Shown piece after piece: positions 13,101 to 64,000 of a stretch of 64,000 bases of DNA (positions are counted from its first letter, which is position 1; each line of letters opens with the position of its first letter). The notes under the pieces were generated by a model that was not told where the DNA came from, did not search any database, and saw only the letters and a list, made by a program, of their open reading frames with translations. Origin of the DNA: Eubacteriales bacterium (GTDB taxonomy: Bacteria; Bacillota; Clostridia; Oscillospirales; CAG-272); the NCBI GenBank assembly GCA_045123255.1, contig JBGVIN010000023.1:7247-71246 (forward strand), written 5' to 3'. Both the position numbers and the translations under genes were made by a program.

Positions 13101-13319
13101 ATGATTTATTATCAAAGATTGAAGGATTTAAGAGAGGATAACGATAAAACGCAAGAGGAAATTGCCGCGCTTCTTGGCATTTCAAGACAGCATTATTCTC
13201 TTTACGAGCGTGGATTAAGAGAGCTACCAATGCACCATTTTGTCACCCTTGCAAAATATTATAACGTTTCTCTTGACTATATTTCGGGCATTTTACAAAC
13301 ACCGAAAAAATTGTATTAA
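13101..13319 (+). CDS. XRE-family helix-turn-helix regulator (72 aa)
   Basis: MIYYQRLKDLREDNDKTQEEIAALLGISRQHYSLYERG. The ATG at 13101 follows GGGGA. Confidence 0.8.
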   Translation: MIYYQRLKDLREDNDKTQEEIAALLGISRQHYSLYERGLRELPMHHFVTLAKYYNVSLDYISGILQTPKKLY

Positions 13320-13342
13320 AACGAACAGGGGGAGTGATTTGG

Positions 13343-13561
13343 TTGTATAATTATCAACGGTTGCGCGATTTGCGTGAGGATTTAGATAAGACACAAGCAG
13401 ATATTGCAGAAGTATTAGGCATCGCACCTCAGCAATATCAATTGTACGAAAGCGGCAAAAGAGAAATGCCGATGCACCATTTTATCACTCTTGCCAAATT
13501 TTACGACGTATCGCTTGACTATATTTCGGGTATTTTACAAACACCGAGAAAACTGTACTAA
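13343..13561 (+). CDS. XRE-family helix-turn-helix regulator (72 aa), tandem paralog
   Basis: (M)YNYQRLRDLREDLDKTQADIAEVLGIAPQQYQLYESG. The TTG at 13343 lies 9 nt after GGGGGA. The tail SLDYISGILQTPRKLY matches its neighbour. Confidence 0.72.
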   Translation: MYNYQRLRDLREDLDKTQADIAEVLGIAPQQYQLYESGKREMPMHHFITLAKFYDVSLDYISGILQTPRKLY

Positions 13562-13585
13562 AATAGAAAAGTGACGAACTATACT

Positions 13586-19959: not shown

Positions 19960-19979
19960 ATAAGGGATGGCAACACAAC

Positions 19980-20048
19980 CGCGAAGCGACTTAATCCACC
20001 AAAGGCGGACTTAATCCATTTATGGACTTCATCGCGTAAGCGATTTCA
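19980..20048 (+). repeat. Hairpin/linker array A (linkers ACTTAAT, ACTTAAT, ACTTCAT, ATTTCAT)
   Basis: The hairpins cgcGAAgcg, ccaccAAAggcgg, ccatTTatgg and cgcGTAAgcg are each followed by a 7-nt linker. Confidence 0.7.
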
Positions 20049-20174
20049 TTTTCCATTATCCCCCTCCCGTTTGTTTGGTACGTACCGTTTGGGCGGGAGG
20101 CAGGTTGCCTCCCCTACAAGGTGCCGAACATTCCCCCTTGTCATTCCGAGCCTGTCGAGAAATCTCAAAGCGGA

Positions 20175-20406
20175 CAACCAATGGTTGCCCCTATATCCAT
20201 CAACCGCAGGTTGCATATCATCACACATAGTGTGCATATCACCAATGCAAAGCATTGTATATCATCACCGCAGGTGTATATCATCAAGGCATTCGCCTTG
20301 TATGTTCCTCACGCACCATAGGTGCATATCACGTGGCTGAGCCACATATCACGCCTTGCTTACAAGGTTATATCACGTGCCCACGCACATATCACGTCCG
20401 CAGGAC
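20175..20406 (+). repeat. Hairpin/linker array B (11 hairpins, linker [CT]ATATCA[CT])
   Basis: The 11 hairpins are caaccAATggttg, caaccGCAggttg, cacacATAgtgtg, caatgcAAAgcattg, caccGCAggtg, aaggcATTCgcctt, gcaccATAggtgc, gtggcTGAgccac, ccttgCTTAcaagg, gtgcCCACgcac and gtccGCAggac. They are separated by catatcat, catatcac, tatatcat and atatcac linkers. Confidence 0.8.
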
Positions 20407-27419: not shown

Positions 27420-27641
27420 ATGCAATATTCACAAAGATTAAAGGATTTAAGAGAAGATAGTGATTTAAGCCAAGAAGCAGTTGCTAAAATTTTATGTACA
27501 AGTCAGTCATACTATGCTCAATATGAAAACGGAAAAAGAGAGCTTCCATTTAGCCGAGCAATTATTCTTGCTAAATTCTATAACGTTTCGCTTGATTATA
27601 TTGCAGGAATTACAAGCATTCCAAAAAAACTTAATAAATGA
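27420..27641 (+). CDS. XRE-family helix-turn-helix regulator (73 aa)
   Basis: MQYSQRLKDLREDSDLSQEAVAKILCTSQSYYAQYENG...SLDYIAGITSIPKKL. It is a paralog of the 13101 and 13343 genes. Confidence 0.8.
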   Translation: MQYSQRLKDLREDSDLSQEAVAKILCTSQSYYAQYENGKRELPFSRAIILAKFYNVSLDYIAGITSIPKKLNK

Positions 27642-51509: not shown

Positions 51510-51526
51510 ACTATATTATAAATAAA

Positions 51527-51705
51527 ATGAATTGAAGCAAAGCTTCATAAATTGTAACTATGTTACATAAATTGCGCCGTTGGCATATGTATTGTCGCAA
51601 AGCAACATTAAAAATGACGTTAGTCAATTCATGGCGTTTGCCAATTCATGTTTCGCAGAAACAATTCATGACGAAGTCAATTCATGTTTCAAAGAAACAA
51701 TTCAT
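51527..51705. repeat. Hairpin/linker array C (10 hairpins; ATGAATT-like linkers, then AATTCAT x5)
   Basis: The 10 hairpins are gaagcAAAgcttc, gtaacTATgttac, gccGTTggc, gtcgcAAAgcaac, gacGTTAgtc, ggcGTTTgcc, gtttcGCAgaaac, gacGAAgtc and gtttcAAAgaaac, with gccGTTggc set in gcgccgttggca. The last linker contains the TGA stop of 51702..52421. Confidence 0.85.
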
Positions 51706-52443: not shown

Positions 52444-52645
52444 ATGAATTGTGCCAATGGCACATGAATTGTTGCGAAGCAACATGAAATGAAGCAGAGC
52501 TTCATAAATTGTGACAAAGCACATTAATTGTTTTTCTGAAACATGAATTGGCTCCGCCATGTTCTTTTAATGCCAACGGCAATTCATGACACATTGTGTC
52601 AATTCATGTCCGTAGGACAATTCATGATGCCACGCATCAATTCAT
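52444..52645. repeat. Hairpin/linker array D (10 hairpins; ATGAATT-type x6, centre, AATTCAT x4)
   Basis: Left hairpins are gtgccAATggcac, gttgcGAAgcaac, gaagcAGAgcttc, gtgacAAAgcac, gtttTTCTGaaac and ggcTCCgcc. After the centre come gccAACggc, gacacATTgtgtc, gtccGTAggac and gatgcCACgcatc. The last linker contains the TGA stop of the radical SAM gene. Confidence 0.85.
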
Positions 52646-59359: not shown

Positions 59360-59543
59360 TGACGCAAACGCGTCAATGAAATGAATCCCCAAGGATTCTT
59401 GAAATGACCTTTCGGTCATGAAATGATTGCTGTGCAATCGTGAAATGCTCTTTTGAGCATAGGATTCATTTTATTTCATGATATTGTAAATATCATTTCA
59501 AGACAAGCTTGCTTGTCATTTCAAGTGCGAAAGCACATTTCAT
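59360..59543. repeat. Hairpin/linker array E (8 G...C hairpins; ATGAAAT-type x4, centre, ATTTCAT/ATTTCAA x4)
   Basis: It starts 1 nt after the carB stop. See the findings for the unit list. Further hairpins (ttttgccAAggcaaaa, gcttgcTTGgcaagc) extend to 59614. Confidence 0.85.
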
Positions 59544-59633
59544 CATATCATCACTTTTGCTTTGCAAAACCAAAGCTTTTGCCAAGGCAAAATCATAACG
59601 CTTGCTTGGCAAGCTTATAGTTAAAGGATTTAT

Positions 59634-61267: not shown

Positions 61268-61965
61268 TGGGAAAGGACGTAATTGTAGCTTGTGACTTTG
61301 CAAGCAAGGAAGAGGTTTTTGCATTTCTTGACAAATTTGAAAATGAAAAGCCATTCGTTAAGATTGGTATGGAGCTTTTTAATGCGGAAGGACCCGATAT
61401 CGTACGCGAAATTAAGAAAAGAGGTCACAAAATATTCCTCGACTTGAAGCTTCACGATATTCCAAACACGGTTAAAAAGGCAATGGCTGTGCTTTCACGC
61501 CTTGACGTAGATATGACAAACGTACACGCAAGCGGCACTATTGCAATGATGGAGGCGGCGCTTGAGGGTCTTACACGTGAGGACGGCACCTGCCCACTTT
61601 TAATAGCTGTTACTCAGCTTACCTCAACGAGTGAGGAAAGAATGAAAAATGACCTACTTATCAACGAGCCAATGGACAAGGTTGTTATGCACTATGCATC
61701 TAACGCAAAGAAAGCAGGCCTTGCAGGTATCGTTTGCTCACCGCTTGAGGCAGAAAAGGTACACGAGGTGTGCGGCAAGGACTTTGTAACCGTAACTCCG
61801 GGTGTGCGCTTTGCAGACGGTGACAAGGGCGACCAGGTTAGAGTTATGACACCGCAAGAGGCAAAGAAGATAGGCTCAGACTATATCGTAGTTGGCAGAC
61901 CTATTACGGCAGCGGCAGACCCTGTGGCGGCGTACCGTAGATGCGTAAACGAGTTTGTGGACTAA
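61267..61965 (+). CDS. pyrF: Orotidine 5'-phosphate decarboxylase
   Basis: VACDF..., KIGMELF, FLDLKLHDIPNTV and IVVGRPIT motifs. Confidence 0.92.
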   Translation: MGKDVIVACDFASKEEVFAFLDKFENEKPFVKIGMELFNAEGPDIVREIKKRGHKIFLDLKLHDIPNTVKKAMAVLSRLDVDMTNVHASGTIAMMEAALEGLTREDGTCPLLIAVTQLTSTSEERMKNDLLINEPMDKVVMHYASNAKKAGLAGIVCSPLEAEKVHEVCGKDFVTVTPGVRFADGDKGDQVRVMTPQEAKKIGSDYIVVGRPITAAADPVAAYRRCVNEFVD

Positions 61966-61976
61966 GCCACCAACTC

Positions 61977-62061
61977 GAATTAAATCTTGCTTCGCAAGAA
62001 TAAATCCCTTTGGGATGAAATCACATTGTGATGAAATCCACGCAAGCGTGGGTTGAAAAAT
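61977..62061 (+). repeat. Hairpin/linker element F (after pyrF)
   Basis: GAATTAAAT-cttgcTTCgcaag-AATAAAT-cccTTTggg-ATGAAAT-cacATTgtg-ATGAAAT-ccacgCAAGcgtgg-GTTGAAAAAT. Confidence 0.85.
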
Positions 62062-62125
62062 AGACAAACAAGGGCAATAAGCCCTCCCCTTTGTTTGGAG
62101 GAGAAGCCTTGAAAAGGAGTTAAAA

Positions 62126-62776
62126 ATGGAACAATACAAGAGAGAATTTATACAGTTTTTACAAAACGCAGGCGTTTTGAAGTTCGGTGATTTCACCGCG
62201 AAGAGTGGCAGAAAAATCCCGTATTTTATCAACGCAGGCGAGATTAAAACAGGCGAAAACATCGCAAAATTGGGCGAATTTTACGCAAAAGCGTACTTCG
62301 ACAAATTAGGAAAGAAGGAAGCTGCACTTTACGGCCCTGCATACAAGGGAATTTCAATTGCGGTTGCAACGTCGGTTGCTCTTGCAAGGGAAGGCTTAAA
62401 TCTTCCGTTCTTCTTTAACCGCAAGGAGGTTAAGGACCACGGAGAGGGCGGCGTTTTCGTTGGCTATAAGCCAAAGGCAGGCGAGGAGGTAGTTATCGTT
62501 GAGGACGTAATTACCGCAGGCACTGCAATTCGCGAAACGATGGAAATTATGAAGAGCGTTGACGGCATAAAGGTTGCCGCTTGCTTCGTTATGGTTGACC
62601 GCAAGGAAAAGGGTCAGGGCGAAAAGGGCGCAATGGTTGAAATTGAGGAGGAGTTTGGCTTCCCTGTATACTCCGTTGTTGACGTTTACGATATTATCGA
62701 GTACCTCGAAGAGGACGAAGCGAACAGAGAAAACGTTGAAAGAATAAAGAAGTACCGCGAGGTTTACGGAGCGTAA
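62126..62776 (+). CDS. pyrE: Orotate phosphoribosyltransferase
   Basis: FGDFTAKSGRKIPYFIN and the PRPP-binding segment VVIVEDVITAGTA. Confidence 0.92.
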   Translation: MEQYKREFIQFLQNAGVLKFGDFTAKSGRKIPYFINAGEIKTGENIAKLGEFYAKAYFDKLGKKEAALYGPAYKGISIAVATSVALAREGLNLPFFFNRKEVKDHGEGGVFVGYKPKAGEEVVIVEDVITAGTAIRETMEIMKSVDGIKVAACFVMVDRKEKGQGEKGAMVEIEEEFGFPVYSVVDVYDIIEYLEEDEANRENVERIKKYREVYGA

Positions 62777-62880
62777 GCATAAGCGAGCTTATGCAATTAA
62801 ATCCAAGCAAGGCTTGGAATAAATCCCTGCGGGATGAAATCGCAAAACGATGAAATCCGCGCAACCGCGGACTGAATAAT
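62777..62880 (+). repeat. Hairpin/linker element G (after pyrE), paralog of F
   Basis: gcataagcGAgcttatgc-AATTAAAT-ccaagcAAggcttgg-AATAAAT-cccTGCggg-ATGAAAT-cgCAAAAcg-ATGAAAT-ccgcgCAACcgcgg-ACTGAATAAT. Confidence 0.85.
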
Positions 62881-63122
62881 TCCACCGTCAGAAAAGCGTA
62901 CAGTTGGGCTTTAGATGGCGAGGGAAAAAGTGCGAGTGACATCTCGTCGGCGTACTATCGTACGGTAGGGATGTCAGTCGCGATTAGAAAAGCAAAGGAG
63001 ATTTTGTTAAAAATCTCTACCTTAAAAGGTTCGATGGCGTCTTGACGGTTAAAAATATGAGCATAAAATTGCTTTTCGGTTTCACCGTCATATAAAGTCC
63101 GAATAAAAAAGGAGAAATTCGA

Positions 63123-64000
63123 ATGAGAAGTCTAATAGATATTAAAGAGCTTAGCGTTGAGGAAATCGACGCGCTTATAGAAAAGGCTCTTGATATAATT
63201 GAAAATCCGACGAAATATAGCGAAAAGTGCAGAGGAAAGAAGCTTGCAACGCTTTTCTTTGAGCCATCGACAAGAACGCGCCTTAGCTTTGAGGCGGCAA
63301 TGTACGAGCTTGGCGGCAACGTGCTTGGCTTTTCATCTGCTGACAGCTCGTCAAGTGCAAAGGGCGAGAGCGTTAGCGACACCGCTAAAATGATTTCCTG
63401 CTACGCAGATATAATTGCTATGCGTCACCCAAAGGAGGGTGCGCCGCTTGTTGCGGCTATGAACGCATCAATCCCTGTTATCAACGCAGGTGACGGCGGA
63501 CACAATCACCCAACGCAAACGCTTACTGACTTGCTCACCATAAAGCGCAAGAAGGGCAGATTTACAAATTTAACCGTCGGTCTTTGCGGCGACCTTAAAT
63601 TTGGCAGAACCGTTCACTCACTTATTAACGCGTTAAACCGTTACGAGGGAATTAAGTTCGTGCTTATCTCCCCCGAGGAATTAAAGGTGCCGAGCTACGT
63701 AAAGAATGAAATTACAAAATCAGGCAGAGAATACATCGAAACCAAGGACTTAGTAGGTGCTTTGCCCGAGCTTGACATTCTTTATATGACCAGAGTACAA
63801 AAGGAGCGCTTCTTTAACGAGGAGGACTACCTGCGCTTAAAGGACAGCTACATTCTCGACCCTGAAAAGCTCACTTATGCAAAAGAGGACCTTTCAATTA
63901 TGCACCCACTTCCACGCGTAAATGAGATAAGCGTAAAGGTTGACTCCGACCCACGCGCACACTATTTTGACCAGGCGTTAAACGGCAAATACGTGCGTAT
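63123..64000 (+). CDS. pyrB: Aspartate carbamoyltransferase catalytic subunit (3' end outside window)
   Basis: Not in the ORF track because no stop lies within the window. My own translation from the ATG at 63123 (AAAGGAGAA upstream) gives [22 protein letters not shown]...[14 protein letters not shown]...HPTQ...HPLPRV. Confidence 0.9.

Follow-up and report, generated by a model that had tools for sequence, protein, structure and literature searches.

The window analysed here, a 64,000-nt stretch of contig JBGVIN010000023.1 from an Eubacteriales bacterium, carries in its pyr operon two arrays of small hairpins and short linkers, element F between pyrF and pyrE and element G between pyrE and pyrB (Table 1). 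On balance we favour the reading that F and G are two nearby copies, each with a single arm, of an interspersed DNA repeat particular to this lineage, and that this repeat is probably maintained at the DNA level and is co-transcribed with the operon as a passenger. This reading builds on the anatomy and the family membership of both elements, on the turnover of the arrays, on the perfection of their palindromes and on the polarity of their units. Mobility and maintenance at the DNA level we infer from rapid turnover, local duplication, inverted polar arms, stems without wobble intermediates and the cassette-like replacement of whole hairpins.

Element F begins 11 nt past the stop codon of pyrF (TAA, 61963–61965). 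Its linkers are in order GAATTAAAT, AATAAAT, ATGAAAT, ATGAAAT and GTTGAAAAAT, and between them lie the hairpins cttgcttcgcaag, ccctttggg, cacattgtg and ccacgcaagcgtgg. The linkers of element G are AATTAAAT, AATAAAT, ATGAAAT, ATGAAAT and ACTGAATAAT, here separated by the hairpins ccaagcaaggcttgg, ccctgcggg, cgcaaaacg and ccgcgcaaccgcgg. An extra perfect hairpin, gcataagcgagcttatgc, precedes the four-hairpin part of G and directly abuts the stop codon of pyrE (TAA, 62774–62776). The sequence-only reading from which we started had described two paralogous elements with the same order of linkers and differing hairpins, both placed close to an upstream stop codon, and the sequence is exactly as it was described, with F 11 nt after pyrF and the leading hairpin of G 0 nt after pyrE. 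F and G are both sense-strand features, and neither disrupts the ribosome-binding site downstream of it. Pfam identifies OMPdecase (pyrF) and OTCace (pyrB) at the locus and Pribosyltran for the pyrE homologues. The pattern ATGAAAT-N(7-20)-ATGAAAT occurs twice in the window, in F and in G, compared to 0.02 expected occurrences.

With RNA and DNA parameters alike, the single strands of F and G fold into four local hairpins each (z-scores −2.3 and −2.5 as RNA and −3.2 to −4.9 as DNA). No intrinsic terminator or attenuator was found on the sense strand of F or G, where the hairpins are followed by AUGAAAU and not by a U-tract; terminator-like matches to the two elements are confined to the antisense strand. 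Since the U-tract is missing, F and G should not terminate transcription. Neither element has a promoter-like site or a terminator of its own, and the Rfam model of the PyrR binding loop gave no match between 61900 and 63200 at E-values up to 10 and none in the whole window.

Table 1. Positions of elements F and G and of the other hairpin/linker arrays in the window.
Feature	Position	Strand	Description
Element F	61977-62061	+	one-armed, four hairpins, inside the 160-nt pyrF-pyrE spacer
F hairpins	61986-61998, 62006-62014, 62022-62030, 62038-62051	+	
Element G	62777-62880 including leading hairpin; four-hairpin part 62795-62880	+	
G hairpins	leading 62777-62794; then 62803-62817, 62825-62833, 62841-62849, 62857-62870	+	
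Sister element, carB-pyrK spacer	59361-59545	+	two-armed
ATGAATT-dialect array	52444-52645		two-armed (ATGAATT then AATTCAT), between two minus-strand genes (radical-SAM and DUF4886)
ATGAATT/ATAAATT-dialect array	51526-51705		two-armed (ATGAATT then AATTCAT), downstream of the DUF4886 gene
Array cluster	19975-20395		between an unannotated gene and typA/bipA

A comparison of F and G over 64 gap-free nucleotides yields 13 differences, ten of them in the hairpins (10/32 nt) and three in the last linker. Over the linkers of the whole element there are three differences in 39 nt, and the hairpins are thus about four times more divergent than the linkers. Two stem pairs, one in hairpin 3 and one in hairpin 4, have changed on both sides from A-U to G-C. 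The compensatory change that had been reported in the last hairpin is therefore confirmed, the count of one being too low. A further pair went from U-G to U-A, and G has lost one pairing in hairpin 3 (C-G to C/A). Hairpin 1 is 13 nt long in F and 15 nt in G and is misaligned by MAFFT; read directly, both forms are perfect palindromes which differ by two U-A/A-U flips and one extra C-G pair. The covariation of the F/G pair is suggestive but not significant on its own: no more than two independent sequences are compared, and 56 of 500 shuffles do as well. A covariance model was built from F, G and the orthologue of F in L323, a strain with 98% PyrE identity, and was used to search 315 kb of related sequence. 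F scored 95.7 bits and G 90.7 bits, all other arrays reached 12–22 bits, and since only F, G and the L323 orthologue exceed 90 bits, F and G are each other's closest paralogues, in agreement with the paralogy that had been proposed.

By its PyrE homologues the window falls among uncultured gut Clostridia (Oscillospiraceae, Faecousia, Ca. Avispirillum, Acutalibacteraceae and metagenome-assembled genomes (MAGs) of the ruminant RGIG series). The best PyrE identity in the homologue search was 96%. L323 (98%) came from exact-protein look-ups, in which it was the only other strain besides the Logan contigs of SRR25030061, which are 100% identical to the window. In related loci the spacers corresponding to those of F and G are mostly short: the pyrE–pyrB spacer has a median of 11 nt and does not exceed 40 nt in 85 of 97 loci (346 nt in the window), and for the pyrF–pyrE spacer the median is 20 nt with at most 40 nt in 58 of 94 loci (160 nt in the window). 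Among lineages with a PyrE identity of at least 93%, the pyrE–pyrB spacer is found in at least five different states.

In L323 element F is kept with a single change in a loop. At the site of G this strain has a 50-nt mini-array, TAA-ATTAAAT gcaaaatgc AAAAT gcataatgc AAAATGAAAGG, which has only the first linker in common with G. L121 (PyrE 96%) carries neither array at the pyrF–pyrE or the pyrE–pyrB spacer. The clade at 93% (L324, L325, L328 and L329) carries an orthologue of the carB–pyrK element and, in its pyrF–pyrE spacer, a further copy along with a TCGATAT array. In L324 the two copies of this TGAAAT element lie 2.5 kb apart and have the ends AATGAAAT...ATTTCATT. The pyrE–pyrB spacer of the same clade contains an ATATCGT|ACGATAT array or is 2 nt long (L328). 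The PyrE protein of L326 is identical to that of L324, and its pyrE–pyrB site is occupied by an unrelated 277-nt module instead. The clade at 92% has a compact pyr operon without arrays, and more distant relatives show other linker dialects at the same sites, namely GTTATGA (L123), ATGAATT with GCTAAAT (L144) and GTGAAAT (L129 and L138). Arrays are absent from the P0044 clade and numerous in the P0004 clade. As judged from these sequence comparisons, F and G are recent lineage-specific insertions and not conserved parts of the operon.

An empty site could also be identified outside the pyr operon. At the junction of the radical-SAM and DUF4886 genes L324 has no spacer but a plain ATGA overlap of start and stop codon (tatATGAtt, L324 601–608). 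In this single case the empty site reads ATGATT where the filled site of the window opens with ATGAATT, which hints that a linker-like target or microhomology might be used at insertion. The elements had no BLAST match in plasmid or phage collections. Searches for three TGAAAT motifs in viral contigs and for the series AATAAAT/ATGAAAT/ATGAAAT in metagenome contigs gave, among the matches listed, chance AT-rich sequence and no genuine array.

The window contains at least six loci with hairpin/linker arrays, all of them intergenic. Their linkers belong to the dialects TGAAAT, TGAATT, GTGATAT and ACTTAATC, and several loci consist of two inverted arms. The arrays were found by a repeat search and by reading the sequence and subsequently with a linker-aware detector, which in its strict form returned 0 chains in shuffled sequence and in its loose form a few three-unit chains. 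A linker-blind detector of consecutive hairpins was dropped, because with 81 chains in the window and 48–75 in shuffled sequence it performed no better than chance. The carB–pyrK element begins with a leading hairpin, followed by (A/T/G)TGAAAT linkers with four hairpins, the centre ATAGGATTCATTTTATTTCAT and an inverted arm in which ATTTCA(A/T) linkers separate three hairpins. Its RNA fold has a z-score of −7.2, and an orthologue and a paralogue with compensated stems are present in L324/L328. In the cluster upstream of typA/bipA, units of ACTTAATC/ATTTCAT with four hairpins (19975–20050) are followed by ATATCA(C/T) units, the reverse complement of GTGATAT, with about ten hairpins (20193–20395). 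Copies of one dialect are clustered. A 3.5-kb stretch of the pyr operon holds three TGAAAT-type loci; the two ATGAATT loci, 0.9 kb apart, flank the DUF4886 gene, just as F and G flank pyrE.

The perfection of the palindromes holds for the family as a whole. In 98 distinct hairpins we counted 504 Watson–Crick pairs, at most five G-T pairs and two A-C pairs, the exceptions coming mostly from doubtful arrays. The stems comprise 4–7 bp and the loops mostly 3 or 4 nt. The stem apex has the consensus WWGC-loop-GCWW, with C-G as closing pair in 61 of 81 cases. Two orthologous and two paralogous copies of the two-armed TGAAAT element were aligned, and 98.6% of the cells in this alignment are paired; six pairs have changed on both sides, including A-U/U-A flips, and none on one side. 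In this larger alignment too, stem changes are thus compensated, and together with the comparison of F and G it substantiates the claim that linkers are kept while hairpins drift and yet stay paired. Between close relatives whole hairpins are swapped with identical flanking linkers, for example gatattgtaaatatc for gaaaggcttgcctttc and gttggctcaagccaac for gtttcgctttgcgaaac. Stems common to several arrays were discounted as evidence for exchange, as the WWGC apex makes chance sharing likely.

The units have a fixed polarity. On the strand reading TGAAAT the triloops are T-N-C in 18 cases and G-N-A in one (p ~8e-5). The ratio is 12:1 in left arms and 6:0 in right arms after flipping, and CAAG outnumbers CTTG 8:0 on the linker strand. 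Because the polarity is fixed and the ratio is equal after flipping, the right arms consist of left-arm units genuinely inverted as DNA. Opposite the linkers, the complementary strand has GC-GNA-GC apices, and the exact sequence GCGNAGC favours this strand by 8:1. The DNA mini-hairpin d(GCGNAGC) is exceptionally stable, with a melting temperature of 76.5 °C compared to 39 °C for its RNA counterpart (PMC13037366). A purine/pyrimidine bias of the loops by sense strand was also considered; the bias is slight, and unit polarity accounts for it better. A chain of coupled mini open reading frames with AUG...UGA overlaps was rejected as well, since it requires a period of 2 mod 3, at which F and G (16, 16 and 21 nt) and other arrays fail. 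The same applies to a ladder of four-way junctions between left-arm and right-arm linkers: the minimum free energy fold prefers local hairpins and one enclosing stem, and such a ladder is not needed, since the linkers of one-armed arrays are uniform although they have nothing to pair with.

The arrays are related to Gut-1, the Rfam family RF01706, which has a gathering score of 50 bits. F and G were matched in E-value mode, end-to-end over the 77 positions of the model, and with 29.3 bits (F) and 27.4 bits (G) both remain below this score. The carB–pyrK copy reaches 49.3 bits, just below the cutoff, and the arrays in 19975–20395 score 33 and 23.5 bits on the minus strand. Matches above the threshold occur in the relatives L129, L126, L138 and L325 (55–60 bits), among them the GTGAAAT arrays of L129 (59.9 bits) and L138 (56.2 bits), and in one relative such a match lies directly upstream of pyrE. 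The published Gut-1 seed with its flanks shows a GUGAUAU-hairpin arm followed by an inverted AUAUCAC-hairpin arm, often just past a stop codon or terminator. As this is the identical two-armed layout, Gut-1 corresponds to one arm of the elements described here. Gut-1 was reported as a probable non-coding RNA from 43 sequences, all from human-gut metagenomes, and no function was assigned (PMC2864571). That report does not mention interspersed repetition, inverted arms or fast turnover, and our literature searches found no later work on Gut-1. F and G share with Gut-1 at least three consecutive short hairpins and (G/A)UGAAAU-type linkers, and close relatives have copies above 50 bits in comparable positions. 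They differ in having four or five hairpins where Gut-1 has three, in their first two linkers (AAUUAAAU and AAUAAAU, linkers 3 and 4 being AUGAAAU) and in their source, which is ruminant-gut MAGs and not the human gut, from which alone Gut-1 was described. Judged by the model scores, F and G are divergent, below-threshold relatives of Gut-1.

The unit of the repeat is a 7–8-nt A-rich TGAAAT-like linker together with a small hairpin that is a perfect palindrome and has GC at its apex. An arm is made of three to six such units, and a complete element has two inverted arms, comparable to terminal inverted repeats or REPINs; the family includes Gut-1 as the equivalent of one arm. On the reading that we favour, copies colonise the short spacers of co-directional genes, often abutting the upstream stop codon, and duplicate into nearby spacers; they are gained, lost or replaced within species-level time. 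On DNA, the palindromes would be preserved either through correction templated by the hairpin or through the exchange of entire units, probably in the single-stranded state, and selection for a pyr-specific RNA fold would play no part in keeping the palindromes. In the pyr mRNA F and G are expected to fold into four to five stable stem–loops which are read through. They may incidentally slow down 3′ exonucleases or uncouple translation, an effect that would be generic and secondary.

The sequence-only reading had taken the conserved linkers and the compensated stems as a sign of selection on structure. In the corresponding explanation F and G are cis-acting RNA modules of the pyr mRNA, with hairpins that block 3′-to-5′ exonucleases and single-stranded AUGAAAU linkers that may serve as endonuclease sites, each cut leaving ends capped by a hairpin, so that the segments of the mRNA would have their own stabilities and the fold would be under selection. 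REP/BIME, ERIC and Correia repeats do alter mRNA stability. The position of F and G on the sense strand 0–11 nt after a stop codon, the intact ribosome-binding site, hairpins that are stable as RNA and lack a U-tract on the sense strand, the compensated stem changes and the tendency of one-armed arrays towards sense-strand linkers would all suit such a module. We nevertheless consider it unlikely. The arrays are not kept at orthologous positions even at 96–98% PyrE identity, the architecture is found in unrelated spacers, in both orientations and with inverted arms on a single transcript, and the polarity of the units follows the orientation of the arm and not the transcript. G-U pairs and one-sided substitutions are almost absent, and several linker dialects are difficult to reconcile with a single RNA-binding partner. 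Thus paralogy and structure-preserving change stand, whereas the idea of a selected RNA fold is not supported and maintenance at the DNA level fits better; near-perfect DNA palindromes, two-sided changes, whole-hairpin swaps and a polarity that inverts with the arm all speak for the latter. A dedicated RNA device for pyrF, pyrE and pyrB is likewise not supported, as the arrays are not kept at orthologous sites and belong to a wider family. Considerably less probable than an RNA module in the mRNA, and the least credible of the explanations, is that the arrays are genes of trans-acting small RNAs (sRNAs). Rfam does type RF01706 as 'Gene; sRNA', but F and G are embedded in an operon, enclosed by a stop codon and the ribosome-binding site that follows, and neither has its own promoter-like site or terminator. 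The arrays also show free variation in the number of copies and arms and in the sequences of the hairpins, and they occur in both orientations.

Two further explanations also operate on DNA. The arrays could be by-products of replication without any machinery or function, arising by slippage and by template switching at quasi-palindromes and at the microhomologies of the 7-nt linkers, by which units would be generated, homogenised, duplicated and deleted; inside operons only non-polar insertions with strong structure would be tolerated. Such an origin would account for the perfect palindromes with two-sided changes only, for whole units swapped between identical linkers, for the local clustering of same-dialect copies and for the empty site with a linker-like ATGATT at the ATGA overlap. 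It would, however, hardly be expected that random errors give an 18:1 loop polarity or a conserved GC apex; moreover the layout recurs in distant genera and in the human-gut Gut-1 sequences, and the dialect is uniform within an array but different between arrays. We rate this origin somewhat below the RNA module. The 7-mer direct repeats and their inverted sets in two-armed elements might also be binding sites on duplex DNA, with the 7-bp linkers read by a protein in the manner of iterons or operators. This is very improbable, although not quite as much so as sRNA genes: the linker spacing varies within an array (16, 16 and 21 nt in F) and helical phasing is consequently not kept, the palindromic nature of every spacer is not accounted for, and several dialects coexist in one genome.

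A number of points weigh against the interspersed DNA repeat that we prefer. No transposase or other candidate enzyme was found among the Pfam-scanned flanking genes or the Pfam families on the contigs of relatives (64-kb window, loci of up to 20 kb), and no target-site duplication could be recognised when filled and empty sites were compared. F and G are single-armed, and F is kept between both sequenced strains, the one with the window and L323. Folding with DNA parameters gave equal energies for both strands and hence no strand preference. One-armed arrays have a weak bias, with the linkers on the sense strand in about 10:3 by eye, which an RNA role predicts likewise; this ratio cannot separate effects of transcription from those of replication. 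The low number of G-U pairs is not decisive, since short stems may need perfect pairing as RNA too. The hairpin statistics come from about 90 units, mostly of pyr-region loci of few lineages, which are partly non-independent.

As far as analogies go, the nearest known systems are the REP/BIME/REPIN repeats and modular miniature inverted-repeat transposable elements (MITEs), with the logic reversed, as here the linkers are conserved and the palindromes variable. Like REP sequences, the arrays are short palindromic extragenic repeats which are clustered inside operons and co-transcribed, and REPs can affect mRNA stability. In REPs, however, the palindrome is conserved and recognised by the RAYT transposase, whereas in the arrays conservation lies in the short linkers and the stems are hypervariable: no palindrome is common to all copies, the stems differ between units and copies, and only the apex GC and the linkers are constant. 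No RAYT gene was seen among the scanned flanking genes of the window and of loci of up to 20 kb. The arrays are also direct repeats of polar units and do not alternate in orientation. An inverted doublet with true inversion of the units, as in REPINs, is present in the carB–pyrK element and in both ATGAATT loci (59361–59545, 51526–51705 and 52444–52645) and absent in F and G. According to the accounts in PMC3116915 and PMC3337134, such REPIN doublets are thought to act as hairpins of single-stranded DNA.

With the MITEs and modular repeats BOX and RUP of Firmicutes and with Chunjie of Geobacter, which are small and non-coding, have inverted ends and a variable number of modules and insert without disrupting operons, the arrays share the inverted ends, the varying number of modules and the operon spacer as insertion site. 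At their ends the two-armed copies carry AATGAAAT...ATTTCATT; F and G are without the second arm. Different from MITEs, neither a target-site duplication nor a parent insertion sequence has been identified for the arrays, and their modules are hairpin units of 16–22 nt whose sequences differ within a single element. The d(GCGNAGC) mini-hairpins resemble the arrays in the GC-loop-GC apex with mostly G-N-A loops on the strand complementary to the linkers. They are known from single-strand origins and N4 promoters, where they act as single functional hairpins in single-stranded DNA of phages and plasmids (PMC13037366).

It is a tentative possibility, which we hold with clearly less confidence than the repeat nature of F and G, that Gut-1-type arrays represent an unrecognised class of prokaryotic interspersed repeat with cassette-regenerated palindromes, local spread and a dialect-recognising system acting on single-stranded DNA. 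If true, Gut-1, an orphan 'sRNA' motif for 16 years, would turn out to be a DNA element and not an RNA gene, and an orphan Rfam family would have to be re-read as one arm of an abundant, fast-evolving repeat of uncultured gut Clostridia of the Oscillospirales type. The combination of conserved linkers, hypervariable perfect stems, strict polarity and local spread is unusual for a repeat family, and should a dedicated mechanism exist, it would imply new repeat dynamics. The example also cautions that compensated stems and conserved linkers are insufficient to infer a locus-specific regulatory RNA. The repeats could be used as a marker for strain typing, and the arrays are a likely source of operon-level differences in expression between strains.

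Several further observations concern the surroundings of the arrays. Directly 3′ of F the hairpin caaacaaGGGCaataaGCCCtcccctttgtttg (62062–62110) is terminator-like on the plus strand, and a similar C-rich motif, ctcccgtttgtttgg, follows the ACTTAATC array near 20060 (at about 20057–20075); motifs of this type may be a second small repeat tied to array ends. Between G and pyrB lies a strongly structured module of 243 nt (62881–63123, RNA fold z-score −6.9) which contains a sigma-70-like TTGACG-16-TAAAAT (63042–63069) and has no match in Rfam. A homologue with 75–80% identity occupies the pyrE–pyrB spacer of L326/L327, and the core of the module, GTCGGCGTACT..GTACGGTAG, is found inverted upstream of pyrE in L121 and L123. 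The module could be a further mobile module or an unrecognised pyr leader. Comparing L323 (1069–1215) with the window (62777–63200), the 5′ end of pyrB is far more diverged than PyrE and F, which suggests a recombination breakpoint at the pyrE–pyrB spacer. In the clade at 93% a gene with DUF559/MTES_1575 domains (Vsr-like endonuclease; L325 7827–8832 and L328 3627–4625) lies just downstream of a GTGATAT array after pyrI, with no evidence of a link to the array.

Within 59375–59470 the carB–pyrK element has a conserved centre, GGATTCATTTTAT, that complements the sequence opening its left arm, AATGAAATGAATCC. Both are kept in the copies of L324/L328, and in the predicted fold the hairpins of the left arm are enclosed in a multi-branch loop. 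At the two ATGAATT loci the terminal linkers contain the TGA stop codons of the radical-SAM gene (52642–52644) and of the DUF4886 gene (51702–51704), and the insertion of the array has altered the C-terminus of the radical-SAM protein from ...YQGKLYD to ...YQGIRVDT. Finally, direct repeats of 134–214 nt with 62–78% identity at 1488–2248, 13108–13563 and 27427–27640 look like repeated coding domains which are unrelated to the hairpin arrays.

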